From Nitrosopumilus sp. (lineage in GTDB: Archaea > Thermoproteota > Nitrososphaeria > Nitrososphaerales > Nitrosopumilaceae): DNA of 64,000 nucleotides. Below the pieces are notes generated by a model. That model was not told the origin of the DNA and ran no database searches. It worked only from the letters and a program-made list of their open reading frames with translations. The position numbers and the translations under genes are program-made. The stretch lies in assembly GCA_965205215.1 (NCBI GenBank), contig OZ242041.1, positions 896,001 through 960,000 of the forward strand, in the 5' to 3' direction. This document shows, piece by piece, positions 7,791 to 58,525 of this stretch. Numbering within the stretch: the first letter of the stretch is position 1; each line of letters begins with the position of its first letter.

Positions 7791-7868
7791 GTGCCGGTGC
7801 CCCGTGCCGGTGCCCCGTGCCGGTGCCCCGTGCCGGTGCCCCGTGCCGGTGCCCCGTGCCGGTGCCCC
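7791..7868 (+). repeat. 13-bp tandem repeat GTGCCGGTGCCCC x6
   Basis: Read directly. Confidence 0.95.
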
Positions 7869-8493
7869 CCGTCCTGGAGCCTGCCAGAGTCGTCAAAGTC
7901 TACAAAGTCCAAGACATTGACGACACCAGTGCCCGGACTGCCCAAAAGCCTGCAAGCTTAAAGGATCCTCGTGCGGGAGCGCGGCGGAGCCGGGCGCCTG
8001 GCTGCGGCGACAAGTTGGATTTCGTTTGCGAATGCTGTTCCAAAACTTCTCGTCCGTTTCAAGAGTCGGGACATGCCGCGGAACGACTGAACGCTGAACC
8101 TGCCGCCGCCGCCCGGACGTGCCTTTCGCGGAAAGTTGGGCCGCCGGGCCCGACGTATATGGGAGGGGGCCGCCGCTAAGCGGCCCCCGGTCGTTTCGGG
8201 ATCGTCGCTCGTGAGGAACGTTCGTTTTTCTATATCTGTGGGTAAATGCGAGTCCCGGCGCCTGCCTGCCCGGCGTGATGTGTCGAGCCGGAGCGTTGTC
8301 CGGATGCATGTTCTGCACGTGTACGGTGCACGTTGTGCATCTGGGATGTGCGGATTATGCATGCCGGAAAACCTCGGAAATACAGATTGTGCACCGTTGC
8401 CGTGTAGATTGTGCACGTGGGGGACGCCTTGCGGCCCGTGCTCGTGCACTTCAAGCATTTTGGGCCTTTTATGCATACGGGAGCCTGCGGCGC

Positions 8494-8817
8494 GTGGAGC
8501 TTGAAGACATCCAGAGAAAGGTCCAGTTCCGGCAGGGATCCTATGCCGTGACCATACCGCTCCGGATAGTCCACGCGCTGGGGATCCGCAGGGATCAGTA
8601 CGTCAGGTTCGCCGTCTCCAAGAACAAGGTCATCATAAAGCCCGTCGAGTCCAACATTACGAAAAGGGATGTGGCCGAGGCCGACCGGGACTCTGCCGCG
8701 CTCGACAGGTACGGGGAGCGGGAGGACGCCGGCTACATGGGGGACCTCGCCGAGGCCCTAGCGCGCAAGCCGGATGATGCGGGATCCGGCCGAATCGAGA
8801 AGCTCAGGATGAAGTGA
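8494..8817 (+). CDS. AbrB/MazE/SpoVT-type DNA-binding protein
   Basis: RKVQFRQGSYAVTIPLRIVHALGIRRDQYVRF...VIIKP swapped-hairpin pattern; GTG start ~25 bp after TTTTATG box. Confidence 0.8.
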   Translation: MELEDIQRKVQFRQGSYAVTIPLRIVHALGIRRDQYVRFAVSKNKVIIKPVESNITKRDVAEADRDSAALDRYGEREDAGYMGDLAEALARKPDDAGSGRIEKLRMK

Positions 8818-8896
8818 CGCCCGAAGATCTCCATTTTCTGCCCCCCGTCCGGCCGCCCCCCGTTTCCTTGTCCGGGGGCTCTCGGATCATACGTGA

Positions 8897-9445
<549 letters not shown>

Positions 9446-9930
9446 TAGTGTGGGAGCGCGACGGACTTGGCGGGTTTACTACAAACCGTGGTTACTGGCC
9501 TCGGAGCGGCGGCGCGTGCCGTACGCCGCCGCGACGTTCTGACTGCGCATGTCTGGGAAACAACCTAGCCATATACCGCGCGGATCGATCTTCGATTTGG
9601 AAAAGCCGCGAACCTGACAGAAGCTGCTACTCCGGGCGCACCGGCCACATGCTGATCGATGCGGCGCGTACGTGCCGTACGGAGGGAAAAGAGTGACGCA
9701 AACGCGGGCGCGCTCTGGGAGTCCGGGTATGCTGTGGTGCAACTGAACGGTGAGCAGGCCGGCGCGCCGCCGGCCGGACGTGCTTTTTGCGGAACAGCCG
9801 GGCCTGGCGGCCCGGCTGTACATGGGAGGGGGCCGCCGCTAGGCGGCCCCCGGTCATCCCGGGGTTGTCGTTGTGGTGACGTGCCAATATGCGAGTGGGA
9901 TGTTCGACACGTGCCGTCAAATCCGTGGCG

Positions 9931-10183
9931 CCCTTTGCGCGCTTTGCGCCCTTGCCAAAAACACCCTTTGCGCGCTTTGCGCCCTTGCCAAAAACACCCT
10001 TTGCGCGCTTTGCGCCCTTGCCAAAAACACCCTTTGCGCGCTTTGCGCCCTTGCCAAAAACACCCTTTGCGCGCTTTGCGCCCTTGCCAAAAACACCCTT
10101 TGCGCGCTTTGCGCGTCCATATCACGCCAAGAGCACCCTTTGCGCGCTTTGGGCGCTTGTCAAGAGCGCGCTTTGCGCGCTTT
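9931..10183 (+). repeat. 33-bp tandem repeat CCCTTTGCGCGCTTTGCGCCCTTGCCAAAAACA x5 plus degenerate copies
   Basis: Read directly; ends just upstream of the AbrB promoter. Confidence 0.95.
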
Positions 10184-10217
10184 TTTCCCCTTAAACATAT
10201 CCAGGGCGTCACTGGTT

Positions 10218-10529
10218 ATGGACAGCGAGAAGACCTTGGAGCGGAGGATCCAGCTGAGGGGGCGCTCCTTTGTACTGACGATCCCGCGGGCCGTGATAAA
10301 AAAGATGGAGATCCGTAACGGGCAGAGCGTAAGATTTCTGGTGGGGGACGGGGAGGTCGTGATCAGACCCATGAGCGCGGGGACGGGTGACGGGACCGCG
10401 GACTCTGAAGGCCCCGACAAGTACGAGAGGGCCATAGAGGAGATGATGACCAAGGACAAATCCGAAAGGTCCGGCGGCCGCGGTGCGGCGTCCGGGAGGA
10501 GCAAGCTGGAAAGGCTCCGGCTCAAATAA
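10218..10529 (+). CDS. AbrB/MazE/SpoVT-type DNA-binding protein
   Basis: RRIQLRGRSFVLTIPRAVIKKMEIRNGQSVRF...VVIRP; TTAAA box ~27 bp upstream. Confidence 0.85.
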   Translation: MDSEKTLERRIQLRGRSFVLTIPRAVIKKMEIRNGQSVRFLVGDGEVVIRPMSAGTGDGTADSEGPDKYERAIEEMMTKDKSERSGGRGAASGRSKLERLRLK

Positions 10530-11000
10530 TCGCAACCCGGACCTCGCGCCCTTTCCCGCCTGACAGCCGCGCAGGCCTGCTACATCCTCGGGCTCTGGGA
10601 GCGCCATTGTCAGCCGTACGCCGCCAAACCGCCCCGCCGCCCTTCATCCTCTGCCTGCATTCCGGATCCTTTTCAGAGTGCCGTGCACGGCATGTCTCCG
10701 ATGGTGAAGGGGGGCTTCCTCGGTTCGCGTGCGGTTCGGTGGATGGACACCTGCTACTGTCGCTTTCAGACTGATCTTTCAAAGCCTCCGTGGGCATCCC
10801 ATCACGCTTCCGCGCCCTTCACCGCCTGCTCTTGGCGTCCTCCGACTTGGTTTCTGCCCGTCTTGCCGGATTCTCGCTGACATTCGCGATTTCTCGCGTC
10901 TGGATTCTTCCCCCTCCCCCCACGCCTACTCCGTGGGCGTGCCAAGGCTGCCCGGGTGATAATCTGCGGCAGGGACAGCAGCAAGGCAACGGGCTACGGC

Positions 11001-11048
11001 AGTTACCCGGTAACAATCATGGTGCACTATGATTGTTACCGGGTAACT
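11001..11048. repeat. 48-bp palindrome with 20-bp perfect arms
   Basis: AGTTACCCGGTAACAATCAT-GGTGCACT-ATGATTGTTACCGGGTAACT. Confidence 0.95.
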
Positions 11049-11319
11049 ACGTCGTAGGTGGTGGGACGTACCCGTGTCGTGGAACGCCTGCCTCCGGTTG
11101 GTCGCTGCAGGCAGCCGCCGCCCTCCGCCCGCTGTTCGTGCGCGACATGCGGGCCATGGAGCGCCGCAGGGATGGAGTGGGGGGGGGGGCAGACCGGCAG
11201 ACACCCCGTTGCACCCAATCGTACGCGCGGTGATCCTGATTATCCTTTGTAGCGCTGCGGGAGTGGCATGATCCGGGTGGTCCATTCTTGCGGATCTGTT
11301 CCGTATTGAACCCTGGCCA

Positions 11320-11361
11320 TACCCGGAAAGAATCATAGAGCTCGTTGATTCTTTCCGGGTA
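11320..11361. repeat. 42-bp palindrome, same family
   Basis: TACCCGGAAAGAATCA-N10-TGATTCTTTCCGGGTA. Confidence 0.9.
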
Positions 11362-11678
11362 CGGACTGCATTGTCGTGCCGGCTGCCTGTATTAATCATC
11401 TACAGGCCTGCCGCATCTGTCACATGCGCATCCTTGCCGCCGTCCGGGCCCAAGGGCGGGGGCCCGCACCGCGGGACGGACGGACGGGTGGAAAAGGGGA
11501 CGGGGTGCCGACAGGGGCGGCCGCGTGGCGTGGGACACCCAGGTGACATGGTTGCAGTCCGGAGGCATGTCCGGAAGACCCGGGCGGCTGCAGCTGGCAG
11601 GCGGCAGAATCCTGACTGGAACCGGGATCAGCGGCAGATGCCATTACTCAGAAACGGGATTCTGTCACGCCGGCGCCG

Positions 11679-13136
11679 TCACGCGGGCGCCGCCGTCTTG
11701 CGCCTGATCAGGAACCTGCCGGCGGACATGTCCCTTACCAGATCCCACCCGTATGCGACCCACGAGAGCAGCTTCTCCTCTCCCGTGATTATCCTTGTCT
11801 GGTATGGCGGCGCCCCGTGCGGGCCGTCCTGCGGCGGATCCGCGTCTTCCCGCACCATGTCTGCGGAGGCAGGCGCCGGTTCGGGGACGCCGTCCTGGGC
11901 CGCCGGTTCCGTACCGGTATTTTCAGTATGCACCATTATGCTGGAAGGATCTATCCCGTACGTCTTGGCCTGCTGCCGCAGCGACTGCAGGAACGCCTCC
12001 CTCCTCTGCCCGGCGTCGTCGCCCGCGTCGCCCGCGCGCAGGAACACCTCGCTCCTTGCAAAGGCGCCCCGCATGTCCTCGATCATCTGCTCGGTCAGCC
12101 TTCCCTTGTTCGTGGTGTACCTGGCCTCCATGTCGCCCGTGTGCCCCATGAAGAACTGCCTGTACGCGTGCGTCATGCACCCGTTGCTCTCGGCCATGAG
12201 GAGCTGCGTATCAAAGTACGCGCGGAGCACGTAGGGCCTCGCCTTGGTGACGCTCCTGATGGCGGCCCTTATCGGGAGTGTCACGGCCTTTGTGGTCATG
12301 AACTCCTGCCCGTCGGCTGCCTGCCCTCTCACCGTCCTCTTCCTGCATGCCAGGGGCGAGTCCGCACTTAACTTCTCACCCGCGGCGGCGCGGCCGCGGA
12401 GGTATCCTAGGAGGTACGAGCACCCCTGTGACGTGAGGAACGTAAAGTACCTGTGGCCCGCCTTGCTTATCTGCGGCCTTATCGTAACCCTCGCCGGCAT
12501 CCTTTCGAGCGAGACTGTACCTCTTCCGTCGACGTCCGCGCGCAGCCCCTCCACATCAGAGACGCGCAGCCCCTCGGTCCCGTCGTGGCTGCCTATCACC
12601 TGCGGCCGCACCCCAGCAAAGGCCATCAGGGACATGCAGGCGCGGGTGCGCGGATCCGCCGCGTTCATGATAGATTCCAACTGCGCCGGGGTGGGCACCT
12701 GCTCGTCCTCCAGCGTCACGGGGATCCTGGCGTTTGCCACCTTTATCTTGCGCCGTATGTCGACATAGTTGTACGTCAGCCACGACTTGAGCGCCTTTAC
12801 GACGTCCTCTATGTATCCCGGCGCGTACTTTTGCGCCTCCATCCACGTCACATAGTCGAGTATCATGTCCTCGGCCCTCATGCTGTCCTCCTTTCCAGTC
12901 GCGACCATCGCGGCGGGGGTTATCCCGGTGTTCTTGTAGAACATGTTGAGCCGCCTTATCCGCGAGTCGGCGGTGAGCTGGCTTGAGCGCGCAAGGTTTG
13001 CGTGCCACCTCGCGACATTCTCATCTGATTCCAATAAACTACTTGCAGATCCATTCAACCTCTTTTTCAAGATCACCAGTTTTGATTTAAGGCCGGATTC
13101 CCGGCTGCCGGGTTGCAATGTGGTCATACTAGTCAT
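11679..13136 (-). CDS. tyrosine recombinase / site-specific integrase
   Basis: Catalytic set R (AGVRP), K (ISKAG), YxxR (YVLR), H (FMGH), Y (ARYT); sits just 3' of tRNA-Lys; start uncertain (13136 or 13127). Confidence 0.9.
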   Translation of the reverse strand: MTSMTTLQPGSRESGLKSKLVILKKRLNGSASSLLESDENVARWHANLARSSQLTADSRIRRLNMFYKNTGITPAAMVATGKEDSMRAEDMILDYVTWMEAQKYAPGYIEDVVKALKSWLTYNYVDIRRKIKVANARIPVTLEDEQVPTPAQLESIMNAADPRTRACMSLMAFAGVRPQVIGSHDGTEGLRVSDVEGLRADVDGRGTVSLERMPARVTIRPQISKAGHRYFTFLTSQGCSYLLGYLRGRAAAGEKLSADSPLACRKRTVRGQAADGQEFMTTKAVTLPIRAAIRSVTKARPYVLRAYFDTQLLMAESNGCMTHAYRQFFMGHTGDMEARYTTNKGRLTEQMIEDMRGAFARSEVFLRAGDAGDDAGQRREAFLQSLRQQAKTYGIDPSSIMVHTENTGTEPAAQDGVPEPAPASADMVREDADPPQDGPHGAPPYQTRIITGEEKLLSWVAYGWDLVRDMSAGRFLIRRKTAAPA

Positions 13137-13286
13137 GGGGCAGGACCTCGCGTATGTGTAGGGGCCCCGTCGTTCCGGACCACAGTGTCGGGCTAACCCA
13201 GTTGCATTCACCCCGCATGAAGATCCCGGCGCCCGTTGCATGGGGCATAACCCCGAAACCGTTTCCTTGAATATGAACAGAAACAA

Positions 13287-13360
13287 TGGGTCTAAAGGGA
13301 TTCGAACCCTTGACAGCCGGATTAAAAGTCCGGAGCGCTACCTGGCTGCGCCATAGACCC
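13287..13360 (-). tRNA. tRNA-Lys(UUU)
   Basis: Acceptor stem GGGTCTA/TAGACCC, anticodon arm CCGGA-CTTTTAA-TCCGG, GGTTCGAATCC T-arm. Confidence 0.95.
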
Positions 13361-45453: not shown

Positions 45454-45527
45454 GGGCCCGTAACTCAGCTTGGTAGAGTAACCGGCTCATAACCGGTGAG
45501 CCATGGGATCGAAGCCCTTCGGGCCCA
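45454..45527 (+). tRNA. tRNA with CAU anticodon, probably tRNA-Ile2
   Basis: GGGCCCG/CGGGCCC stem, ACCGG-CTCATAA-CCGGT arm; GGGCCC acceptor is Ile-like; one T-stem mismatch; marks the left edge of the right island. Confidence 0.85.
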
Positions 45528-45750: not shown

Positions 45751-46563
45751 GTGGTACGGTTCTGCCATCACTATTACGGCAACAACTCGGGATTCTGCCT
45801 GAAGTGCGGGGCCGTGCGCCGTAGCACTTCTGGAGGAGGACCGCGGCGCAGCAGGCGCTGGAAGCCGCGGAGGCGGCGTCATCGCAGGGGCGGCCGCACG
45901 CGCGGCATCATGTCCGGAATCGGCAGGTTCATCATATTTAGTATAATTGCAACCGCCATCCTTTGGGGTATCATATACGGGATTGAATGGTTCTCCGATA
46001 GATACAAGCCGCACATGTCCGGAACGGTGGATAATGCTTCCGGGACAGCCGGTGGGGACGGCATACTGGAATGGCCCGGAGCGCTTGACCCCGTGTTCTA
46101 TACCGCAGAGGAGGAATCAAGGGCCAACCTTGAGTATATCAACGGCCTACGCGCGGAACATGACAGGACTCAGATCGCGTTCGATGCAAGGGCATACGAT
46201 CTTGCGCTTGCCCGCGTCCACGACACTCTGGAATACGACTACCGCGACCACGTTAACCCGCACACCGGAACCTGCCCGTACACCATGAAAGGCGAATACG
46301 GCTTTGCCACGCACGAGCAGGTGGCAGAAAACCTGGCGTGGGTAGAAGGGGTGGGTCACATGGGACCCAACGAGGCGACAGACATCTGGATGGATAGCAC
46401 GGGCCACAGGTTTAACCTGCTGTACCCATCACACACCGGCGGGGCAACCGCGTGCGACGGTGGCGTATGCATATTTCTCGGTGTGAACACCGACCTGTTC
46501 GGGGCCAAGTGCGCCACCGCCGCAGAAGGAGAAGCGTACTGGAACGGGCGCTCCGGTGGATAA
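45751..46563 (+). CDS. membrane-anchored CAP (SCP/PR-1) domain protein
   Basis: N-terminal Cys/His and Arg-rich segment, TM helix, INGLRAEH, AENLA, WMDSTGHRFNLL. Confidence 0.8.
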   Translation: MVRFCHHYYGNNSGFCLKCGAVRRSTSGGGPRRSRRWKPRRRRHRRGGRTRGIMSGIGRFIIFSIIATAILWGIIYGIEWFSDRYKPHMSGTVDNASGTAGGDGILEWPGALDPVFYTAEEESRANLEYINGLRAEHDRTQIAFDARAYDLALARVHDTLEYDYRDHVNPHTGTCPYTMKGEYGFATHEQVAENLAWVEGVGHMGPNEATDIWMDSTGHRFNLLYPSHTGGATACDGGVCIFLGVNTDLFGAKCATAAEGEAYWNGRSGG

Positions 46564-46796: not shown

Positions 46797-46858
46797 TACT
46801 GGTGCGGATTCATGATATGGATGGTTTGTCGCGTGTATGTCACGAATTCGCACCGGTA
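46797..46858. mobile_element. 62-bp palindromic element (MITE-like, TA ends)
   Basis: TACTGGTGCGGATTCATGATAT...ATGTCACGAATTCGCACCGGTA; near-identical to 49400-49461. Confidence 0.7.
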
Positions 46859-46860
46859 TC

Positions 46861-47319
46861 ATGTCAGGTATGGTTTTTATGACATTGCCTACGTTGTACG
46901 GTACGGCTCCCAACAAAAATAACACCGACTGCACGGATGCGACCGACACATTAAATGAACTAACTAGAAATATTTCCAGTGAACCCAACCATGCACAACG
47001 TGTGGAAACCCCTCATCCACAGAATACGGCGAGACAACGCCGACAACCGACACGCGACGGACGCCCCGATGCAGGCACGCGCGCAACCCCCAAAAAGGAG
47101 CCCGCACCCGGACCAACAACCCCGTATGACATACTTGGTCTGTCCGGTACCGCCACGTGCGCCGAAATCAAGACAAGGTACAGGCAGATGGTAAGGGACC
47201 ACGACTCGTCAAGGGGGCGAATAACCAAGACCGTGCAGGAGAGGGAGATCGACGATGCCGCCATGGCCGCGATCAACAGGGCATACTCAGCATTGAAGAA
47301 AAAGCACGGGTGCAAATAA
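46861..47319 (+). CDS. C-terminal J-domain protein (HPD replaced by HDS)
   Basis: PYDILGL...AEIKTRYRQMVRDHDS...MAAINRAYSAL; TAATG coupling to Hsp70; 5' end uncertain. Confidence 0.7.
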   Translation: MSGMVFMTLPTLYGTAPNKNNTDCTDATDTLNELTRNISSEPNHAQRVETPHPQNTARQRRQPTRDGRPDAGTRATPKKEPAPGPTTPYDILGLSGTATCAEIKTRYRQMVRDHDSSRGRITKTVQEREIDDAAMAAINRAYSALKKKHGCK

Positions 47320-49352
47320 TGGCCGTACTTGGGATAGACCTTGGCACCAGCAGCTCGGCCGCGGCCGTACTCTTGGACGGCAGGGTACAGATAATACCCA
47401 ATCCGGACGCGGGCACGACAGGCAAGCCCTTCCCGTCCGTAGTGTCGTTTTTCAGGGACGGCAGCTGCCTGATCGGGGCGCCCGCAGAGGAACAAAGGCC
47501 GTACAACCCGCACGGCACCATCTCAAACATAAAACGGGACATGGGAACAACCCGGCAAATTGAAGTCTTTGGAAAAAGCTTCATCCCGCAGTTCATATCC
47601 GCGCTGCTCCTGATGAAGATAAGGCTTGACACGGAGTCGTTCCTGAACGAGAAAGTAACGCAGGCGGTAATCACGATTCCCGCAAACTTTAACGACGCCC
47701 AGCGGCAGGCAACGCTGGACGCCGGCCGCATAGCCGGGCTTGACGTGGTGCGGCTTTTGCAGGAACCGGTGGCCGCCGCAATGTCATACGGACTCCACCA
47801 TCTGGAGGAACCGTCCAGGATTTTGGTGTTTGACATGGGGGCCGGCACGCTTGACGTCTCCATCCTAGAGGTCGATTCCGGGTTTTTCGAGGTCATCTCC
47901 ACGTCGGGTTCGCAGCATGTGGGCGGCATCGGCATGGACGACGCAGTCTCAGAATGGCTTGCCGAGGAACACGAAAGGCAGCACGGCCAAAAGCCCGCCG
48001 CCGCCCAGTCATTGCGGCGCCTGTCCGAACTCGCAACCATGCTCAAGCATGAATTGTCAGAGCGGGACGAGGCCTCGTTTGACGAGGACATACCGATGGC
48101 GTCCCACCTTGCCGGAAAAATCACAAGGGGTGTTTTTGAAAAATTGATTGGCGGCCTGCTGGATGAATGCAGGGATGTAATCATGCAGGCCCTGGACAAT
48201 GCCGGACTGCACGCGGCGGACATCGACAGGGTGGTTCTTGTCGGCGGCCCAAGCAAGGTCCCCTCCGTACGGCGCCTGCTCAGAACCGCCGTAAGGGAGC
48301 CGGAGGACGGGATAGACCCGTATTTTGCCGTCGTTTCCGGCGCCGCCATACAGGGCGGCGTGCTGGCCAACGACAAGAACCTGCCCGAATTATACAACGG
48401 GCTGACACTGCTGGAGGTCACGCCGCTTGACCTGGCAGAGGAGGCCCGGAAAGACGGGAAGATCGTACCGGTGGTCATGATCCCGAAGAACACGCCATAC
48501 CCGACGTTTCACACCGAGACGTTCTACGTGAACAAGCCGCTTCAAACCGAGGTTGAAATCAGGGTCTGGCAGGGGGATTTTGAGGCGAACCCCGGGTTTG
48601 CGGGGAACGTAAGCCTCGGCGCGTTCGTCCTAAGCGGGTTACGCGCCGGATGCCAGAACGAGGTCGAGGTCAGATACGAGTTGAATGACAACGGCATACT
48701 GACCGTGCGCGCCGCGGAAATTGGGGGCGGCGTCAAGGGCGAGCTCACCATTGACAGGATATGGAGCCGCATGGGCGCCGTAGCGGAACTTGGATACGAG
48801 CAGCCGGACGAGCATGCCGGGAATGAGGAGGAAATGAAGTCATATGAAAGCAAGTACCGGGATGTAATGTCCCCGTATGAGATGCCAATAGGCAATCAGC
48901 AGGAGGAAGCCGGCGACGCGGGCATGTCATGGATGTGCGGCAGCCTTGCCGACGCAAAGGACATCATCAGGACGCACCACGCGGACCTGCCGGTCGACTT
49001 TTTTGACACCGCCAGGTTTGAGCTGTTTTTGCAGGATGACATGCAGTATGCGTACGCATACATCCACCTTTCCGGGGGTCCCGTATACCAGATAGGCATA
49101 CACAAGATGTTTGCGGAACACACGCGCGAGACCCAGAGAAGCCTCGTAGTAACACTGGTGCACGAACTCCTGCATGCCGTACACCCCGACTGGGGGCACA
49201 ACAGGATAAGGCCCGAAGAGCGCAGGCTTGCGAACCTTGCGCATTACTTCGACGCATATGTGGAGCATGAACGCATGTTTCTCAGCGGGCGCATGTCGTT
49301 TTGCAACAACACACACACCAGTGTGGACGGGAAGCGCATATCGTGCGGTTGA
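47319..49352 (+). CDS. Hsp70-family protein with C-terminal HExxH (zincin-like) domain
   Basis: GIDLGT, TIPANFNDAQRQAT, EPVAAA, DMGAGTLDVS, LVGG, linker LLEVTPL; C-terminal VHELLHAVHPDWGH. Confidence 0.88.
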   Translation: MAVLGIDLGTSSSAAAVLLDGRVQIIPNPDAGTTGKPFPSVVSFFRDGSCLIGAPAEEQRPYNPHGTISNIKRDMGTTRQIEVFGKSFIPQFISALLLMKIRLDTESFLNEKVTQAVITIPANFNDAQRQATLDAGRIAGLDVVRLLQEPVAAAMSYGLHHLEEPSRILVFDMGAGTLDVSILEVDSGFFEVISTSGSQHVGGIGMDDAVSEWLAEEHERQHGQKPAAAQSLRRLSELATMLKHELSERDEASFDEDIPMASHLAGKITRGVFEKLIGGLLDECRDVIMQALDNAGLHAADIDRVVLVGGPSKVPSVRRLLRTAVREPEDGIDPYFAVVSGAAIQGGVLANDKNLPELYNGLTLLEVTPLDLAEEARKDGKIVPVVMIPKNTPYPTFHTETFYVNKPLQTEVEIRVWQGDFEANPGFAGNVSLGAFVLSGLRAGCQNEVEVRYELNDNGILTVRAAEIGGGVKGELTIDRIWSRMGAVAELGYEQPDEHAGNEEEMKSYESKYRDVMSPYEMPIGNQQEEAGDAGMSWMCGSLADAKDIIRTHHADLPVDFFDTARFELFLQDDMQYAYAYIHLSGGPVYQIGIHKMFAEHTRETQRSLVVTLVHELLHAVHPDWGHNRIRPEERRLANLAHYFDAYVEHERMFLSGRMSFCNNTHTSVDGKRISCG

Positions 49353-49399
49353 CATCATTTTATGCCTGATTCTCGGCACTCCTACCATAACCTACAAGG

Positions 49400-49461
49400 T
49401 ACCAGTGCGGATTCGTGACATGGATGGTTTGTAGCGTGTATGTCACGAATTCGCACCGGTA
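49400..49461. mobile_element. 62-bp palindromic element (MITE-like, TA ends)
   Basis: Inverted repeat extends 49393-49468 (27/29 match, 18-nt centre). Confidence 0.7.
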
Positions 49462-49490
49462 CCTTGTACGTAAATGTTAATTATTGACGT

Positions 49491-50675
49491 ATGAATAAGG
49501 TTGACATGCGAATCAGCAGAAGAAAAGAATCATGGTTGATTGGCATACGGCTGCGCGGTAGCCTTCGATCCGATGTACGGAATTACATGAACGACGTTCA
49601 GAGTGATTTTCAGGACGAGAAGAGGCGATATCCACACATTACGTTATTTGGACCATTTTCTACGCGCATGGCAGAACGACATCTAATATACACATTAATG
49701 AGCATTGCCAAAAAATATCCTGAAGCGAGGTTTTCAACAGACGGGTTTTCGTCATTTGATAATAGCGGGTGGTTTTCTGAAGGCCGCGGCATTATAATGA
49801 TCAAAATAGTACCCAATGAAGATCTAAAGCGAATGCGGTATGACATTGCGCAAGAACTACTACCACACTGCTCGCAAGAGGGGGAGTATGATCGAGGCAG
49901 CAAGAACGACTTCAAGTTTCACGCTACGTTAGCGATCGGTAGGACTGGAAAACTCTTCAAAGAGATAAACAAGGAACTCAAATCATATGAATTTAAGCAC
50001 GAAGACATCAAACCGGAACTGATCTTGTATCGCAATCAAGCCCCGGTTTTTACATATCTTACAGGACACGATGTTACGCCCACAAGGCCCAGAAACTTGT
50101 ATGCTGATCCCGAAACGAACCAGAAAGTTATGCCATCCTCCCCCTCTCCCACAGATGAGAGCAGACGTAGGGGAGAGATTTTTGTGGTCAGTGACATGCA
50201 TTTTGACCACAAAAATATCATAAAGTACTGCAAAAGGCCGTTCAGATCCGTCTATGATATGAACCGCGCACTGATCGGCAATTGGAACGACAGGGTAAGG
50301 AAGGGTGACAGGGTGTATTATCTCGGCGACATGACATTCGGAGGAAAAAGAGGATCCATTGACTTTTGGCTCTCTAAACTAAACGGGGAGGTGCGATTCG
50401 TACGCGGCAACCACGACACCGATACCATTACGAGGGCGGAGGTAATAGAGGACAGATTTCCCATAAAGTATGGTGACTACGAATTTCTTTTGATGCACGA
50501 TCCTCACAGGCCACCAGACTGGGACGGGTGGATCATACACGGGGACAAGCACAACAACAGCCCCATTAGATACCCACACATCAACAGAAGAAACAAGACG
50601 GTGAACGTTTGCGTAGAATATACCGATTACACCCCGATGAACCTTGACGAGATCATTGCAAAGATTTCCGAGTGA
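49491..50675 (+). CDS. 2H-phosphoesterase + calcineurin-like metallophosphoesterase fusion
   Basis: PHITL and FHATL (2H); DMHFDH, GD, GNHD, H, HGDKH (MPE). Confidence 0.85.
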   Translation: MNKVDMRISRRKESWLIGIRLRGSLRSDVRNYMNDVQSDFQDEKRRYPHITLFGPFSTRMAERHLIYTLMSIAKKYPEARFSTDGFSSFDNSGWFSEGRGIIMIKIVPNEDLKRMRYDIAQELLPHCSQEGEYDRGSKNDFKFHATLAIGRTGKLFKEINKELKSYEFKHEDIKPELILYRNQAPVFTYLTGHDVTPTRPRNLYADPETNQKVMPSSPSPTDESRRRGEIFVVSDMHFDHKNIIKYCKRPFRSVYDMNRALIGNWNDRVRKGDRVYYLGDMTFGGKRGSIDFWLSKLNGEVRFVRGNHDTDTITRAEVIEDRFPIKYGDYEFLLMHDPHRPPDWDGWIIHGDKHNNSPIRYPHINRRNKTVNVCVEYTDYTPMNLDEIIAKISE

Positions 50676-50680
50676 GTATA

Positions 50681-51164
50681 TAATCACGAGCAAAAGTTCA
50701 TGAGCAAGCATTTGCTCTAAACGGAACCTTTATTGATCATACTATAGTGTGACGCAAAAATCTTTGCGACTGTCAGAACTACACGCGCAACCTTTTTTGA
50801 TCACCGGATGCACCGCTTGGCATGGATGAGAAAGACAGAGACTTGTTTATTCGAGCCTACAAGGCGGAACAAGGCCACCTCGTAAGAAATAGAATCCACA
50901 GTCTGCATGCTCAAGATCAACGGATTGAAGGTATCCGAGGTCACCTCGCTGTGTTATTGCTACTCGCGCACCGTATCCGACTGGGTTCGGCGCTTTGACG
51001 AGGACGGACTTGCAGGCCTGAAAGACAGGCCCCACCCGAGCAGGCCGCCAAAGATAACCCTGAAGAAGATCAGGAGGATTATTGCGGTGGGAGGCGGCAT
51101 CACAACGTCAAGGATGCTTAAGAATACCATACGCGAAAGACACGAGGCGTCCTCGTCATTGTAA
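50681..51164 (+). mobile_element. nested IS630-family fragments
   Basis: IS left end 50681-50742 interrupted by a second end (ctatagtgtgacgcaaaa); HTH remnant TVSDWVRRFDEDGLAGLKDRPHPSRP. Confidence 0.75.
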
Positions 51165-51204: not shown

Positions 51205-52035
51205 CTATCCAAATTTGGCAATTAGCTGATCAGTAATTACTGTTGCATATTTCTTATAAAGTGAGATTGATTGTTTTAGATAAGAATCTGTAATTTTCAA
51301 TCGAGTATCTTTACCAACATAACCAGTTTTTGATTTATAATGTTTATCGGGATAAAGATTATTGTGAATCAATATGTGTCTTCTGTAAAATCGTTCTTTA
51401 AATTTTCTATAATTTTTATCCTCGGTTAAATTAATTTTAAACCGCTTCTCTAGATATTTAAAAATACCATCTATGTCATATTTAATTATGTTTTTGACAG
51501 CTTTGGATCTCATATCATCAATTAAAGAATTCATATTTTCAGCAGCCAGTATATCTGAAAAAGTAACTTTCATATCGTGGGATTTTAAGATTTGTGGTTT
51601 TATGGTGAAAACAACATTTAACAGATCATCCAAAAATTCTTCAAATGCAGCGATTAGGTAAACCACAGACATCTCTCTGCAAAATCGATGAAATCTGTAA
51701 TGCAATAAATCTAATTCTAAATCTGTGGAGACAAGCTTAACAAGTAATTGTGAATCTGTTGTAAATTTCTGTCGTTTTTCCGGTGGGAGTGAGTTCCATC
51801 GTTTATATCTGGTGTATTCTTTTTTGTCACTCGTAGTCATTTGTCCAAAAATGTTTTTATGTGCCGCAGTATTTTTAGGCGTTACTTGTTCTTTAACAAT
51901 ATGCGCAACTTCTTTGTTTATGTAAGTTAAAACATCCAAAGTAATTATGAAATGATCACGTGGGTAAGTTAATTGTTCTTTTTTTGATTGTTTAGTAGTG
52001 GAACTAATTTTAGCTACTAAGTAACGTTTTGTCAT
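51205..52035 (-). CDS. AT-rich putative HEPN-domain protein
   Basis: VYLIAAFEEF helix and R-x4-H motif (RHILIH). Confidence 0.65.
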   Translation of the reverse strand: MTKRYLVAKISSTTKQSKKEQLTYPRDHFIITLDVLTYINKEVAHIVKEQVTPKNTAAHKNIFGQMTTSDKKEYTRYKRWNSLPPEKRQKFTTDSQLLVKLVSTDLELDLLHYRFHRFCREMSVVYLIAAFEEFLDDLLNVVFTIKPQILKSHDMKVTFSDILAAENMNSLIDDMRSKAVKNIIKYDIDGIFKYLEKRFKINLTEDKNYRKFKERFYRRHILIHNNLYPDKHYKSKTGYVGKDTRLKITDSYLKQSISLYKKYATVITDQLIAKFG

Positions 52036-52162
52036 GAACGTATTTTAATTTTGTAGTTATTAAATTTTGTATGAGTTCACGTCGTGCCTAGATTTTGACC
52101 AAAAGGTGATCAAACGTTGACTGTACAGATCCAAATAGTGCGTAGACAAGTATAGCTGAGGG

Positions 52163-53186
52163 TACTGATGCGAATTCGTGACATGGCCACCAATCGGGGG
52201 GGGGGGGGGGGCATGGACTGCCGCACGTACAGAGAGGGTAGGCTTCCAAGGCGTCAAAGGTGCCCGGACTGCGGGCGGTTCATACTGCCTATCGAATACA
52301 TCGTCTGGAAGAGTTAAAGCGGAGGGCGTCCGGGAAGGGGGCATGAAGTGCGCCACGTGCGGGGATAGGACAAACGAGCGTTGCCAGAAGTGCAATGCGG
52401 CGTGTTGCACTGTCTGTAAGAGTGAATATGATTACGAAGTCTGCCCGAACTGCAAGCGAATAGTGATCGCAAATGGGTACGTAGATGGGATTTACGACGA
52501 CGGGAAGGAGTATCCTCTAGAGCTGGCCGCTGTTCATACTGTGTTGATGAATATTCAAGTTCTGCTTGGCGCTATGGTAAAGACGAGTCCGGAGACAATG
52601 AAGGCATTGGAAAGTATGAATCCCGACTACACGAGGTTTGTAGATCAGTTACTGAAGTTCAACACAAAGGCACAGGCAGACCCCCCGGAATAGCCCCCCA
52701 CAGACGCCTTTTTGTCCGCGTGCTTTGAAAACCTACTGCATGCCAAGCCGACGGTCTAGACGGCCTGCACGCCCCCAGAACCGCACGCGGCAGAACAACA
52801 AAACTGCACAGTCCAAGACATCAGAAACGGCCTGACATTATGATCAAACTGTCAGGCTCCGCCATTTTTTCTGAAAACGTTCGTTTTCAGGGGGGTTTAG
52901 CTTTCGTGCCTGCATACGCGATGCAAACACGCAAACACCCCCCCCTTGCACGGTCAAAGATGCCCAAGGATTGCAATGTACACACAATGCAGGCACGAAT
53001 AACGCCATACGTGCGGCCGCAGGCAATGTTTCAATTATCCATACCTAATAGATCATTCGGCATCAGATACTGGTACGAATTTGTGACATGGCCATCTAAT
53101 CGGGGGGGGGGGGGGAGGGAAGGGCGGCGGCGGCGGCGGCGGGGCGCCCCGGTTTCTTATACCTATATCACGAATTCGCATCAGTA
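52163..53186. mobile_element. composite bounded by the same inverted-repeat family, containing a 119-bp copy at 53068-53186
   Basis: TACTGATGCGAATTCGTGA at 52163 is the exact reverse complement of 53168-53186. Confidence 0.6.
52343..52693 (+). CDS. Zn-finger hypothetical protein
   Basis: CATC...CQKC...CTVC...CPNC. Confidence 0.7.
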   Translation: MKCATCGDRTNERCQKCNAACCTVCKSEYDYEVCPNCKRIVIANGYVDGIYDDGKEYPLELAAVHTVLMNIQVLLGAMVKTSPETMKALESMNPDYTRFVDQLLKFNTKAQADPPE

Positions 53187-53230
53187 CCTTGTTCATAAAC
53201 GTTAATTATTGTCGCGCGGATAGACTGACC

Positions 53231-55582
53231 GTGCAAACTATAAGGGAAACACTGTGGTTGGTTGGCATCAGACTGCGCGGCGACCTGCGGCATGATGCGC
53301 GTAGATACATGGAGGATGTTCAACGAGCTCTTTCAGACGGGGAAAGGCGGTTCCCGTACATTTCACTATTCGGGCCGTTCTCAACGCACATGATGGAACG
53401 GCAGATAATAGATGCAATGATTACAGCGATTGAGGCACACCCGGATGCAAGATTCTCAACAGACGGACTGTCGTCACGCGTCCATAACAAGCGGCTGGCA
53501 CGAGACCGCGGTGCCATAACCATCAAAATAGAACCCAACGAATCATTAAAGCAGATGAGATACGATATTGCGCAGGCGCTGCTTCCAAGCACCCGGGCGA
53601 CAAAGCACGACCACAGCAGCAAGGACGATTTTGAGTTTTACGTTACGCTGGCCGTTGGCAACACCGACAAGCGATTCAAGGACATAAGCGGAGATATCGA
53701 GTTCCTAGAGCTGAAACATGAAGACATCAAGCCGGAGTTGGTTTTATATCGCGGCAAAAAACCGGTCTTCACATATTTGGCAGGGCACGGTGCCACGCCC
53801 GCAAGGCCCAGAGATTTGTATGCCGACCCAGAAACATTCCAACGCAATCCACACCCAAACACAAATCGAGGCCGGAATCACAGGAAGGGCCGTAGGGATG
53901 CCACGGGCCCACAAGCGCGACGGCCTCGACAACCCTCGCCGCGTACTGAAATCCACAACAGGGATACCGGCCCAAGGGGCCTGAAAGGCGTGGCAGGCAT
54001 GAGGGATCTAAAAAACCTCCTAATATCCGACGTGATAAACCCACTCAGGCACCCCGAGCAATTTAAAAAATTCAAGGTTACTATGCCCAACGGCATACTT
54101 CTACACGGTCCACCGGGCTGCGGCAAGACGTTTATCGTCAGAAAGCTGGCCGAGGAGCTAGACTATAATTTTTTTGAAGTGGCGCACTCGGATCTTGCAA
54201 CGCCCTACATACACGGCTCAGTCGGCAACATCGGAAGAGTGTTCTCAGCGGCCCTGGAAAACGCCCCCGCAATCATATTTTTTGACGAGATAAGCGGACT
54301 GATACCAGATAGGTCGAAGGCTTCCAACACCGGCGACATCTACAAGGAGGAAGAGGTCAACGAGTTCCTCATGCAGCTTAACAACGCCGCCGAGAGGAGG
54401 ATACTGGTGGTCGGCGCGACAAACTACGTAGACAGGATGGATCCAGCCGCTTTGAGGCCCGGCAGGTTTGACAAGAAGATATACGTCCCCCCTCCGGACT
54501 TTGAGGCCCGCAGGTCGCTGTTTGAGATAGGGCTAACGGACCGCCCATGCGACAAGAGCGTCGACTCTGATCAGCTGGCGGAACTGACCGAGGGGTTTTC
54601 GTGCGCCGACATCATCAAGGACGCGATTGAATCTTCCGCACGGTTCGCAGTCAATCGGGGCCTAGACGTGATTGGCCAAGACATCATACGCAACGAGATA
54701 GCTCGCATATCGAAAAGAATAAGCGCGAATCGCCACCACGTACAACCCGCGCTACGATCTCGGCTACGCGCGGAAAGTGGCAGTGACGATTCTGGTCCGA
54801 GAGGCTTGGAAGGCGTCGCAGGCATGAAGGAGCTAAAAAACCTCCTAATATCCGACGTGATAAATCCGCTCAAATATCCCGAGAAATTTGAGAAATTCAA
54901 GGTTACGGTGCCCAACGGCATACTTCTACACGGTCCACCGGGCTGCGGCAAGACGTTTATCGTCAGAAAGCTGGCCGAGGAGCTAGACTATAATTTTTTT
55001 GAAGTGGCGCACTCGGATCTTGCAACGCCCTACATACACGGCTCAGTCGGCAACATCGGGCGCGCGTTCTCAGCGGCCCAGGAGGACGCACCTGCAATAC
55101 TCTTCTTTGATGAGATCAGCGGCCTGATTCCAAACAGAAAAAATTCACTAGGCCACAGCGGCACCCACAAGGAGGAAGAGGTCAACGAGTTCCTCATGCA
55201 GCTTAACAACGCCGCCGAGAGGAGGATACTGGTGGTCGGCGCGACAAACTACGTAGACAGGATGGATCCAGCCGCTTTGAGGCCCGGCAGGTTTGACAAG
55301 AAGATATACGTCCCCCCTCCGGACTTTGAGGCCCGCAGGTCGCTGTTTGAGATAGGGCTAACGGACCGCCCATGCGACCAGAATGTCGACTCTGATCAGC
55401 TGGCGGAACTGACCGAGGGGTTTTCGTGCGCCGACATCATCAAGGACGCGATTGAATCTTCCGCACGGTTCGCAGTCAATCGGGATCTGGACGCGATTGA
55501 TCAGAACATCATACGCAACGAGATAGCGCGGATATCAAGGAGAAAAGCCGCACAATCAGCGGATGAATTGGGCAATACATAA
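53231..55582 (+). CDS. inactivated 2H domain fused to tandem AAA+ ATPase (CDC48-like architecture)
   Basis: PYISL and FYVTL replace the HxT motifs; two copies of GPPGCGKT / FFDE / ATN...DPAALRPGRFD with an 825-bp period; start estimated. Confidence 0.88.
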   Translation: MQTIRETLWLVGIRLRGDLRHDARRYMEDVQRALSDGERRFPYISLFGPFSTHMMERQIIDAMITAIEAHPDARFSTDGLSSRVHNKRLARDRGAITIKIEPNESLKQMRYDIAQALLPSTRATKHDHSSKDDFEFYVTLAVGNTDKRFKDISGDIEFLELKHEDIKPELVLYRGKKPVFTYLAGHGATPARPRDLYADPETFQRNPHPNTNRGRNHRKGRRDATGPQARRPRQPSPRTEIHNRDTGPRGLKGVAGMRDLKNLLISDVINPLRHPEQFKKFKVTMPNGILLHGPPGCGKTFIVRKLAEELDYNFFEVAHSDLATPYIHGSVGNIGRVFSAALENAPAIIFFDEISGLIPDRSKASNTGDIYKEEEVNEFLMQLNNAAERRILVVGATNYVDRMDPAALRPGRFDKKIYVPPPDFEARRSLFEIGLTDRPCDKSVDSDQLAELTEGFSCADIIKDAIESSARFAVNRGLDVIGQDIIRNEIARISKRISANRHHVQPALRSRLRAESGSDDSGPRGLEGVAGMKELKNLLISDVINPLKYPEKFEKFKVTVPNGILLHGPPGCGKTFIVRKLAEELDYNFFEVAHSDLATPYIHGSVGNIGRAFSAAQEDAPAILFFDEISGLIPNRKNSLGHSGTHKEEEVNEFLMQLNNAAERRILVVGATNYVDRMDPAALRPGRFDKKIYVPPPDFEARRSLFEIGLTDRPCDQNVDSDQLAELTEGFSCADIIKDAIESSARFAVNRDLDAIDQNIIRNEIARISRRKAAQSADELGNT

Positions 55583-55611: not shown

Positions 55612-56871
55612 TTGGCACCAACATCCAGAACCGAAGTCAAGCGCAGAGCCGGAAGTAGCCGGCGGCGACTGCCATCTCGTGTCAAAAAATACATGATAGA
55701 GATCAGGGTCGGAGGGCAACAAAATGAGGTACTCAGGCATCTTGTCAAGGTCATAGAGAAAAACTTTGGCGCCAAAAGCAAGTTCAGGCACGTCCCCCAC
55801 GTCACCATAATAGGGACACTGAGTACATCAAACCAGAGAGATCTCATAAACACCGTGCGGAACGTGGCAAAAGATTATGATCTGGTGAGCTTTCGCCTTG
55901 TTGGTTTTGGCGAATTTTCGGGGCGCGCCATATACGCGCACGTCTGCCCGTCAGATGAATTGAGGGAGATGCGGCAGAAACTTGTCAAGAGTCTTGGCAG
56001 GTTCTGCGAGCTCAAAACATACGATATGAAGGAAGATTTCAAACCCCACGCCACCTTGTGCCTCGACACAGATCTACCAGAGAAAACAGAGGTCGGCATC
56101 AAGAGAAAGTTTGGCAAAATACTAGAATTTTTGGAGAGCTGGAAGCTGTTGGATCATAGACAGCACGCGTTACGGGTAAGCGTAATCGGCGAAAACCGGA
56201 AGATAGTATGCGAATATGATTTGATGCTCCGGAGAATGATCAGCAGGGATGAGGCGCTCAACAGGACGCTATTCAAAAAAACAATGTCGGCTTTTGAGAA
56301 GAGGATGAAAAGATCTGGCACAAATGCAGGAAAGCGTCTGAATTTCACAGACGAAAGCGAACACCTTGGAAGAGTTTTCGTACTTAGTGACCTGCATTTC
56401 GATCATACGAGCATCATAAGGCGCTGCAGGAGGCCATTCTCGTCCACCCAGCAGATGAACCGCATACTGGTCAACAACTGGAACGACAGGGTGAGGAAGG
56501 GCGACAGGGTGTATTACCTCGGCGACATGACACATGGAAGAGAAAGAAGATCCATCGACTTTTGGCTTTCAAAGCTGAACGGCGAGGTGCGCTTTATACG
56601 AGGAAGCCACGACACTGACGCCATTACAAGGGCGGAAGTGATAAAGGACAGATTTCCCATCAGATATGGCGGCTTCGAATTTCTTTTGATGCATGATCCT
56701 TACAGGCCGGTGTACTGGGACGGGTGGATCATACATGGAGACAAGTACAATAGCAACCCTGTTACATACCCACACATCAACAGAAGAAATAAGACGATCA
56801 ACGTTTGTTCCGAGTATACTGGATATGCCCCGATGAGTCTTGATGAGATCATCGCAAAGATTCCCAAATGA
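55612..56871 (+). CDS. 2H-phosphoesterase + metallophosphoesterase fusion (MPE partly degenerate)
   Basis: PHVTI, PHATL; DLHFDH, GD, GSHD, HGDKY; true start may be ATG 55693. Confidence 0.85.
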   Translation: MAPTSRTEVKRRAGSSRRRLPSRVKKYMIEIRVGGQQNEVLRHLVKVIEKNFGAKSKFRHVPHVTIIGTLSTSNQRDLINTVRNVAKDYDLVSFRLVGFGEFSGRAIYAHVCPSDELREMRQKLVKSLGRFCELKTYDMKEDFKPHATLCLDTDLPEKTEVGIKRKFGKILEFLESWKLLDHRQHALRVSVIGENRKIVCEYDLMLRRMISRDEALNRTLFKKTMSAFEKRMKRSGTNAGKRLNFTDESEHLGRVFVLSDLHFDHTSIIRRCRRPFSSTQQMNRILVNNWNDRVRKGDRVYYLGDMTHGRERRSIDFWLSKLNGEVRFIRGSHDTDAITRAEVIKDRFPIRYGGFEFLLMHDPYRPVYWDGWIIHGDKYNSNPVTYPHINRRNKTINVCSEYTGYAPMSLDEIIAKIPK

Positions 56872-57187: not shown

Positions 57188-58525
57188 ATGGCTAACCGGC
57201 GGCAATACAAGCCATATCGATACAGGCATGGCAGAAACCGCGCAAGAAGAGGCCGCAAAGTGGCGGCCATCGTGACTGCAGTGGCCGTTTCTCTTTTACT
57301 AGTTACCATGTTTGCATATGATGGCTGGCCACTCAGACTTGTCAATGAGACGCATGAGGATGTGGGAGATGAGACAGATCCGGTTGGAGACGGTGCGGCC
57401 GAGCCCTCCAGCCTGCAGGAAACCGCCCCTGCCAACACTGATGACGAGCAACAGACGGTGAATGGCGCGGCCGAGCCCTCCAGCCTGCAGGAAACCGCCC
57501 CTGCCAACACTGATGACGAGCAACAGACGGTGAATGGCGCGGCCGAGCTGAGAATGCACATGCTGCGTCTCATCAACGCCGAACGAGCCGTCGCAGGGCT
57601 CGATCCGGTCGAGCTTGGAACAAACACAGCAGCGCAGTACCATGCAGACTCCATGCTGGACAGCTGTACTTCCGGACACTGGGGGGTGGACGGACTCAAG
57701 CCTTACATGAGATACTCGCTTGCAGGAGGACACCAGTATAATGCGGAGAATGTCTACGGCCTAAGCTACTGCATAAAACCGTGGGAGAACTATGTCACTG
57801 TACACCCTAGGGCGGAGGTATCGGAGTCCATGAGATCACTCATGTCAAGCCCCGGACACCGCGACAACATACTTGATCCTCACCACGTGTCGGTAAATGT
57901 CGGTCTGGCGTGGGACGACTACAACATGATGGTGGTGCAGCATTTTGAGTATGATTATGCGTCGTTTTCCAAAAAGCCGTCCATAGACGGCGATGTCCTG
58001 TCCTTTTCTCTTACTACGAAAAACGGCGCCACGATTTCAGACGATTCTACAATACAGATACAGTATGACCCGCCTCCGTACGAACTTACGCGGGGACAGA
58101 TTGCCAGCACCTACTGCTATGATTACGGCCTTTCAGCAGCTACGATACTGCCCCCTCTGCCTCCGGGCTCGTACTACACTGACGACTCTTATCAGGAACA
58201 TTCTTCCTCAAAATGTCCGGATCCATACCGCATCCCTCCCACCGCTCCGGCGCCTGAATCCGTTTGGGGTGCGCTTGAGGCCCACAGACAGGCCGTGGAC
58301 AGTAGCGAGGGGAGCGACAACGCGCCTGCGCGGATGGTTCCGTTCCTTGTTGCCGACAGATGGGACTCGTCCCCAAATCATCTGAACGTGGTTGCCGACA
58401 TATCAGAGATTATCTCAGAGCGCGGGGCCGGAGTATACACCATAACGGTATGGGGTTTTGTACGCGGGGATGCCCCGATAGGCGAGTACTCGGTATTTTA
58501 TGACATCCGCCCGCCGGACGGCTAG
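57188..58525 (+). CDS. membrane-anchored CAP domain protein
   Basis: Arg-rich N-terminus, TM helix, LINAER, AENV, MSSPGHRDNILDP; 72-bp duplication 57395-57548. Confidence 0.85.
   Translation: MANRRQYKPYRYRHGRNRARRGRKVAAIVTAVAVSLLLVTMFAYDGWPLRLVNETHEDVGDETDPVGDGAAEPSSLQETAPANTDDEQQTVNGAAEPSSLQETAPANTDDEQQTVNGAAELRMHMLRLINAERAVAGLDPVELGTNTAAQYHADSMLDSCTSGHWGVDGLKPYMRYSLAGGHQYNAENVYGLSYCIKPWENYVTVHPRAEVSESMRSLMSSPGHRDNILDPHHVSVNVGLAWDDYNMMVVQHFEYDYASFSKKPSIDGDVLSFSLTTKNGATISDDSTIQIQYDPPPYELTRGQIASTYCYDYGLSAATILPPLPPGSYYTDDSYQEHSSSKCPDPYRIPPTAPAPESVWGALEAHRQAVDSSEGSDNAPARMVPFLVADRWDSSPNHLNVVADISEIISERGAGVYTITVWGFVRGDAPIGEYSVFYDIRPPDG

Follow-up and report, generated by a model that had tools for sequence, protein, structure and literature searches.

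A predicted non-catalytic 2H domain fused to a doubled AAA module in Nitrosopumilus sp.

Background

In classical AAA+ unfoldases the N-terminal domain selects the substrates or adaptors, and AAA+ proteins with pseudoenzyme domains are already known. Active 2H phosphoesterases either open 2',3'-cyclic phosphates or cleave 2'-5' linkages; in RNA-end healing, a linear phosphatase then clears the 2H product, according to two publications (PMC7824862, PMC9503650). The gene described here joins the two kinds of protein. It was found in a stretch of 64,000 nucleotides (nt) from Nitrosopumilus sp. (assembly GCA_965205215.1, contig OZ242041.1, positions 896,001–960,000), referred to below as the window, and occupies 53231–55582 on the forward strand, as do all features marked (+). 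Its product of 783 amino acids, counted from a GTG start, consists of a 2H-like N-domain, a basic linker and two AAA modules, D1 and D2. Neither part is new as a kind. This architecture is not found in the searched literature – searches for a 2H-AAA fusion or a Tyr-substituted 2H domain, with subscription journals and supplements outside their scope, returned nothing relevant.

The reading that we prefer, with slightly more confidence than doubt, is that the N-domain is a non-catalytic 2H domain that serves as the targeting domain of a working tandem AAA motor.

A 2H fold without catalytic histidines

The fusion open reading frame (ORF) is the longest of its region. It ends at 55582 (+) and has alternative starts at 53189 (TTG) and 53231 (GTG), the second of which agrees with the N-termini of the relatives P0002, P0003 and P0006. 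The 2H-fold core corresponds to residues 1–185 (53231–53785, +). Residues 41–168 match the Pfam family PF13563 (2_5_RNA_ligase2, of the 2'-5' RNA ligase/2H superfamily) at 31.9 bits, above the cutoff of 27. An AlphaFold2 model of residues 1–223, built on a 27-row alignment, has a mean predicted local distance difference test score (pLDDT) of 85.5 and the alternating strand-helix layout of 2H proteins, with two lobes, one motif strand in each, and a disordered tail after about residue 185. All 14 of the Foldseek matches in the PDB at E<=0.001 are 2H proteins (Usb1, poxvirus cGAMP phosphodiesterase, YjcG, plant CPDase), and the next matches are viral 2'-5' phosphodiesterases, LigT, AKAP18 and Acb1.

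The two H-x-T/S motifs that carry the catalytic histidines in this superfamily read Y-I-S and Y-V-T in the fusion. Tyr43 (53357–53359, +) lies in motif 1, P-Y-I-S, and Tyr137 (53639–53641, +) in motif 2, F-Y-V-T; both codons are TAC, a single C-to-T transition from CAC. When the motifs of the fusion clade were re-aligned with 25 non-fused family members, the motif-1 histidine was present in all 25 and the motif-2 histidine in 24, the sole exception being the distant member P0032, which likewise has tyrosine. Tyr137 also falls on the histidine of the HVT motif of YjcG in a direct alignment that is itself weak (E 0.59). The family-conserved residues R14, P42, G48, R110, T139, F149 and Y182 are retained across the fusion clade. 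Sequence comparison and the predicted fold support the view that the N-domain is a 2H domain lacking both catalytic histidines, a probable non-catalytic derivative under constraint.

It is very improbable that the domain is still an enzyme with altered chemistry, using for example a tyrosine nucleophile that forms a covalent phosphotyrosyl link to an RNA end. Such an enzyme would be consistent with the same reactive-hydroxyl residue at both positions, the retained motif-2 threonine and the tyrosine of P0032, but the histidine-to-tyrosine change is the easiest one-step change, literature searches found no Tyr-for-His 2H enzyme, and solved structures of His-mutated 2H proteins are titled inactive or mutant (6d2z H208Q, 9ciw H72A).

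A paralogue of the N-domain is encoded upstream, at 49506–50675 (+; start alternatively 49491), by the gene for a protein with a 2H domain, both histidines intact, and a calcineurin-like metallophosphatase domain (2H-metallophosphatase a). The two 2H domains are 53–55% identical, with PHITL and FHATL in the enzyme where the fusion has PYISL and FYVTL, and the protein homology ends at the residues LYADPET. Likeness in the DNA begins upstream of the genes (49439–49489 vs 53164–53214, 86% identity) and includes one palindrome arm. The promoter region common to both (53165–53210, +) contains an arm of a 24-nt repeat at 53165–53188 and a TATA-like box, TTAATTATT, at 53202–53210, about 20 nt ahead of the GTG start of the fusion. 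The 2H part of the fusion and its promoter were copied from the 2H-metallophosphatase a gene. The original prediction, made from the letters of the window, had described the N-domain as a close paralogue of this gene from the upstream palindrome to LYADPET, with both histidines changed to tyrosine, and had proposed structure prediction as a check; on all of these points it agrees with what was found.

Relatives and selection

Six relatives of the N-domain, all fused to AAA modules and 66–91% identical, were found among 1208 candidates in a word-indexed search limited to proteins of 438–1395 amino acids. The motif-2 tyrosine is present in all six, and the motif-1 tyrosine in the five that cover it. 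In the window and five of the six relatives the 2H domain is complete and has no stops; the sixth, P0005, is an N-terminally truncated record. An exhaustive HMMER search over 1.84 billion representatives returned only 34 proteins at E<=0.001, in which P0003 represents the fused form and the rest are stand-alone 2H proteins or 2H-metallophosphatases. The fusion clade forms one group in a tree of the N-domain (support 82/99), with unresolved inner branching. A first metagenome scan with the fusion N-domain gave no relative, a protein atlas search found only the 2H clusters again, and none of these fused proteins is named in public sources. The fusion architecture is rare, conserved and confined to one small clade, and is not unique to this strain.

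Parts of the window also occur in DNA runs from sponge-labelled metagenomes (X3, X5, X6 and X13, with word shares of 0.10–0.31). Contigs of run X3 are 90–99% alike over most of the fusion gene, so related variants of it occur in sponge-labelled samples. The 14 sequencing runs listed as containing the stretch include no RNA run.

One other fusion locus with DNA, L015, was available. It lies in a metagenome-assembled genome placed in a different genus bin from the genome of the window, and is from the same genome as G311. The ratio of nonsynonymous to synonymous substitution rates (dN/dS) between the window and L015 was 0.24 in the 2H core, 0.14 in each AAA module, and 0.52 in the Arg/Pro-rich linker (53786–53959, +), which is predicted to be disordered (pLDDT 48–59). 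The 2H domain of the catalytic paralogue had a ratio of 0.12. Nonsynonymous change in the 2H core was far under synonymous change (Fisher p=7e-8), and its dN/dS was not significantly above that of the catalytic paralogue's 2H domain (p=0.06) or of the AAA modules (p=0.16). The alignment reads through a 1-nt insertion in L015, with the adjoining codons masked.

These values bear on the proposal that the N-domain is a relic without a specific role, a structural cap or a slowly decaying remnant on a protein in which the AAA modules alone matter. The loss of both catalytic residues, a frameshift inside the N-domain of the L015 copy, and a dN/dS nominally above that of the catalytic paralogue are all as expected of a relic. 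However, a ratio far under 1 in a domain that is full-length, stop-free in nearly all relatives and confidently predicted to fold is evidence of purifying rather than neutral evolution, and we consider a relic clearly unlikely.

The doubled AAA module

D1 (53960–54784, +) matches PF00004 and AAA_lid_3, with its Walker A motif at 54107–54130 and the DE of Walker B at 54284–54289. D2 and the C-terminal tail (54785–55582, +) follow in register with D1 at +825 nt. Pfam finds PF00004 in two stretches of the fusion, at 1.1e-64, and AAA_lid_3 likewise in two. Both modules have Walker A GPPGCGKT, Walker B FFDE, the arginines of RPGRFD and the aromatic pore loop YIHG; the hallmarks of the classical AAA clade (Walker A and B, a second region of homology with Arg fingers, and a helical lid) are all present.

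D1 and D2 are direct repeats at 825-nt spacing, with 91–98% identity in DNA and 85–88% in amino acids. Exact runs shared by the two modules measure 151, 212 and 100 nt in the window and 145, 58, 71 and 196 nt in L015, even though the fusion genes of the window and L015 differ at a synonymous divergence (dS) of about 0.4. Within five doubled proteins, D1 and D2 are 88, 96, 92, 98 and 91% identical, often more than orthologous modules are to each other – D1 of P0003 is 98% identical to its own D2 and at most 91% to other D1s. The loop after Walker B differs from the rest. This patch of D1 (54230–54340, +) is 62–78% identical to its D2 counterpart (55055–55165), with blocks of 100% identity on either side, and its D2-specific residues are common to the window, P0002 and P0005 and homogenised in P0001 and P0003. 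The exact runs, found despite this divergence, and the pattern of the patch argue for one older duplication with continuing gene conversion.

Two modules are present in P0001, P0002, P0003, P0005 and L015, and one in P0004 and P0006, the relatives furthest from the protein of the window. Since the two most divergent relatives have one module, the comparison indicates that the doubling is lineage-specific, and that the likeness of D1 and D2 is kept up by gene conversion. P0004 and P0006 would then be primitively single-module, a view that draws on how distant they are and on the single modules of the outgroup family described below; secondary collapse is an alternative.

The junction of D1 and D2 is bridged by Logan contigs covering 54630–54862, from run X1 (0 differences) and from run X3 of another study (11 differences). 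With the doubling present in four other proteins and in one other genome, and its junction bridged in two studies, it is not a misassembly. The original prediction of two intact modules 825 nt apart, with long identical DNA stretches, was correct, and so was the duplication itself. Its description as recent has to be qualified: lineages at dS of about 0.4 also have the doubling, and gene conversion accounts for how nearly identical the modules are.

Source of the AAA module

The other AAA genes in the genome of the window are at most 39% identical to the module of the fusion. In a tally of 200 genomes of the order, including the unpublished genome G108, the best matches were CDC48-type genes, in the AAA part only, at 32–39% identity. 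Much closer relatives were found elsewhere. More than 1515 protein clusters match one fusion AAA module at E<=1e-40, and the best 120 are single-module proteins of 286–379 amino acids, 63–71% identical to the fusion module, with the TPYIHGSVGNIG loop included. The N-terminal region of about 100 residues common to this family has no Pfam match; in a model of one member, P0043 (pLDDT 81.6), it is a small beta-rich domain.

In two genomes, G243 and G299, the single-module AAA gene is the last of four co-directional genes, after those for a GrpE-like protein, an Hsp70 of 839 amino acids and a J-like protein of 585 amino acids (7500–13360 of locus L051 in G243, 4176–10151 of L052 in G299). The operon also occurs in the metagenome loci L053–L065, and metagenomes contain it widely. 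The Hsp70 matches PF00012 at 4e-72. The GrpE-like protein matches PF01025 at 1.7e-4, below the cutoff, and the 585-residue protein starts like a J-domain and has no Pfam match. Among the 13 best metagenome loci, 10 have a gene for the same long Hsp70 upstream of the AAA gene; of the remaining three, one spans only 1.5 kb. In one further locus the Hsp70 gene is downstream. The Hsp70, J-like and GrpE-like proteins of this operon are without a model in PADLOC, and the literature search, within the scope given above, found no paper on it.

AAA modules of this single-module type were found in 2 of 401 sampled genomes of the phylum (G000 included) and in 4 of 151 in the family, two of the four being fusions. 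This AAA family is rare in the phylum. By the identity of its module, the AAA part of the fusion derives from the single-module family of the Hsp70 operons and is not of CDC48 origin (37% identity); in its N-domain and its gene context it departs from that family. The single-module proteins themselves form a large family of AAA ATPases, apparently not described before, that is linked to atypical Hsp70/J/GrpE-like operons.

Proposed working

The history of the gene is reconstructed as follows. The 5' part of the neighbouring 2H-metallophosphatase gene, comprising its promoter and 2H domain, was copied and joined to an AAA module from the family that normally ends GrpE-like/long-Hsp70/J-like operons, the 2H copy replacing the beta-rich N-domain. 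Both catalytic histidines changed to tyrosine before the known members diverged. The AAA module was later duplicated in tandem, with gene conversion holding the copies alike save for the loop after Walker B and the module ends.

The protein would form a hexamer, in which the six pseudo-2H domains would recognise a target but not cut it. The likeliest target would be a phosphorylated nucleotide or RNA-end ligand of the kind handled by the active paralogues, after which the motor would remodel the protein, or the complex of RNA and protein, that is bound. The flanking active 2H-metallophosphatases might process the same ligand, by opening of the cyclic phosphate and then removal of the phosphate; the joint role of 2H enzymes and linear phosphatases in RNA-end healing fits these flanking fusions. 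The hexamer and the unfoldase action are expected from family membership, and we infer both the cooperation with the neighbouring 2H-metallophosphatases and the identity of the ligand. The Arg-rich linker could add nucleic-acid affinity. Most economically, the dead 2H domain would still recognise the ligand class of the active paralogues, or a partner of the paralogue, and so aim the motor. If the domain is a targeting domain, recognition of a ligand has about twice the probability of pure protein docking.

The dead 2H domain could instead be a protein-protein adaptor without a ligand. It would dock the active 2H-metallophosphatase or its partner to the AAA ring, where the enzyme would be regulated, assembled or recycled by the motor. 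Several observations are consistent with this. The domain was copied from an adjacent enzyme gene, and the two genes are adjacent in both of the loci with DNA; in L015 a homologue of metallophosphatase a (91% identity) lies directly upstream of the fusion, 520 nt away. The motif-1 serine is degenerate in two of six relatives, as expected once phosphate binding is unimportant. Dead paralogues that regulate an active partner are a known theme, to judge from the available part of one publication (PMC5201418). An adaptor that binds no ligand would not explain why the motif-2 threonine, R110 and other family-conserved residues are still invariant, and we regard this alternative as rather unlikely. 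A complex prediction for 2H-metallophosphatase a and the fusion N-domain gave no support (score 0.01), a result that does not bear on binding either way.

Several further observations weigh against a targeting domain that binds a ligand, or limit the evidence for it. The motif-1 residue Ser45 is present in four of the six fused proteins and is replaced by Val in P0001 and Ala in P0006, so the phosphate pocket is not strictly kept. Of 176 columns in the 2H core, 94 (53%) are invariant in the fusion clade anyway, which makes conservation of the tyrosine pair weak evidence when taken alone. The dN/dS values come from one pair of sequences, the window and L015, and the L015 fusion gene carries one extra nucleotide in a GGG run (10266–10276), which breaks the frame near codon 90 and may be either an error of assembly or a true frameshift in a pseudogene. 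None of the 80 metagenome loci with AAA relatives has a 2H-metallophosphatase gene. There is no Hsp70 within 10 kb in L015, and the Hsp70 encoded in the window is closer to the housekeeping DnaK of the genome (41% identity) than to the operon Hsp70 (30%). The Hsp70 and J-like genes of the window are not orthologues of the partners in the usual operon of the AAA family, and the position of this Hsp70 near an AAA gene of the Hsp70-linked family is therefore suggestive without being an orthologous arrangement.

The original prediction saw in the parallel changes selection for a non-catalytic nucleotide or RNA-end binding pocket. That the domain is non-catalytic and under purifying selection is in agreement with the data. 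They do not demonstrate selection of the tyrosine pair for such a pocket: each change is a single C-to-T step, about half of the core is invariant, and the motif-1 serine is replaced in two relatives. That the pocket gates or feeds the motor, as was also proposed, is a hypothesis.

A targeting domain on the motor would be a new way to aim remodelling at RNA-linked targets, by means of a nucleic-acid-end enzyme fold without catalysis. A more specific version is speculative, and we think it doubtful: the dead 2H domain would be a sensor for 2',3'-cyclic-phosphate RNA ends, or for a 2'-5' or cyclic nucleotide signal, that recruits or activates a chaperone-lineage AAA+ motor, with the flanking 2H-metallophosphatases as the signal-clearing or end-healing arm. 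If true, it would link RNA damage or nucleotide signalling directly to remodelling of proteins or ribonucleoproteins, as part of an archaeal stress or anti-virus module not described before. The gene is also a case of domain evolution caught in the act, with a promoter and domain copied from the next gene, catalytic residues lost and a second ring built by tandem duplication and held alike by gene conversion.

Gene neighbourhood

The fusion gene lies in an island downstream of a tRNA gene (45454–45527), where the G+C content drops from about 0.60 to 0.40–0.57. The island begins with a gene for a CAP-domain protein (45751–46563), a J-domain-like ORF (46837–47319, +; Pfam 25.7 against a cutoff of 27.8, so below it) and the gene for a divergent Hsp70 (47157–49352, +; 394 bits against a DnaK cutoff of 648). 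This Hsp70 has an extra C-terminal region of about 170 residues with a zincin-like HELLHAVH motif and no Pfam match. 2H-metallophosphatase a follows; the best-scoring of two profile matches noted for it is Aquifex aq_1665 (1xm7; 9.8e-18), the other being YjcG (9.2e-11).

Between metallophosphatase a and the fusion is an insert of low G+C content (about 0.40) at approximately 50.7–53.2 kb. It contains an N-terminal fragment of an IS630-family transposase (50907–51164), an ORF of 276 amino acids on the minus strand (51205–52035) with the RxxxxH motif RRHILIH and a weak RiboL-PSP-HEPN match (E 0.09, below cutoff), a Cys-rich ORF (52178–52693), and poly-G runs of 16 (52196–52211) and 14 (53102–53115).

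The gene for 2H-metallophosphatase b (55612–56871, +) starts 30 nt after the stop of the fusion and is followed by a second CAP-domain gene (57188–58525). Its metallophosphatase half is 75% identical to that of metallophosphatase a (DNA repeat 50150–50449 vs 56346–56645) and its 2H half just 15–18%, a mosaic that points to shuffling of modules within the island. L015 lacks the low-G+C insert and metallophosphatase b, and also the genes for the Hsp70 and the J-like protein. A CAP/SCP-domain gene adjoins a 2H-metallophosphatase gene in 10 of 13 loci (L133–L143, L015 and the window), mostly directly upstream and co-directional; the L015 homologue has a Cys-rich start and then a hydrophobic stretch.

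A dispersed element of 24 nt, with a consensus of approximately ATGTCACGAATTCGCACCAGTACC and often in palindromic pairs, occurs at 46837–46860, 49398–49463, 52161–52184, 53066–53091 and 53165–53188, and elsewhere in G000. With up to two mismatches allowed, its 16-nt core is found 23 times in the genome, and the reversed control not once. The element is usually 10–16 nt upstream of a TATA-like box, as at the J-like gene, metallophosphatase a, the HEPN-like ORF and the fusion. It could serve as an operator for genes regulated together, or be a small mobile repeat. Loose contig ends at 53186–53193 prompted us to consider an inversion of the segment between the repeats at 52161–52184 and 53165–53188; it was rejected because the letters of the loose ends match the stretch left of 52161 and further copies of the dispersed repeat.

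At the start of the window, a low-G+C stretch contains an ORF of 698 amino acids (2123–4219) with an AAA_15/AAA_21 ATPase and an OLD-like TOPRIM domain, of the OLD nuclease family.

Comparison with described systems

PADLOC models of IetA, from the anti-phage system IetAS, match the AAA modules of the fusion at 2e-58. Membership was rejected, with 190.7 bits for NF042959 (NCBIfam IteA) against a cutoff of 510, and no IetS-like partner protease was recognised beside the fusion gene from the ORF list and Pfam matches of the window. The AAA proteins of the Hsp70 operons have one module, their own beta-rich N-domain of about 100 residues and an Hsp70 operon around them, whereas the fusion has a pseudo-2H N-domain, two modules and 2H-metallophosphatases as neighbours.

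With the 2H phosphoesterases (LigT/YjcG, Usb1, CPDase, and the viral 2'-5' and cGAMP phosphodiesterases) the N-domain shares the fold, the two-lobed layout and motifs on equivalent strands. Unlike them, it has tyrosine for both histidines and is joined to AAA modules, where they stand alone or are fused to a metallophosphatase. Weaker structural matches (E 0.006–0.05) are the central domain of AKAP18 delta (2vfk, with AMP) and two trypanosomatid mitoribosomal proteins (7aor_ar, 6hiw_DQ), which we take to be 2H folds in non-enzymatic roles, as nucleotide-binding or structural modules; AKAP18 presumably retains its His motifs.

In layout the fusion resembles CDC48, p97 and VAT, in which two classical AAA modules likewise come after a targeting domain at the N-terminus, and these proteins, mostly in their D2 modules, are its best solved sequence relatives (about 1e-80). 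Identity to the CDC48-type genes of the genome and of its relatives is 31–39%. The original prediction of a CDC48-like double motor is right in this respect. Membership in the CDC48 family was rejected: TIGR01243 gives 325 bits against a cutoff of 802.65, the module is nearer to the Hsp70-operon family, and CDC48_N is not among the best 25 of 45 Pfam families for the proteins of the window. The two rings of CDC48 diverged anciently, whereas D1 and D2 of the fusion are 88% identical copies of one module.

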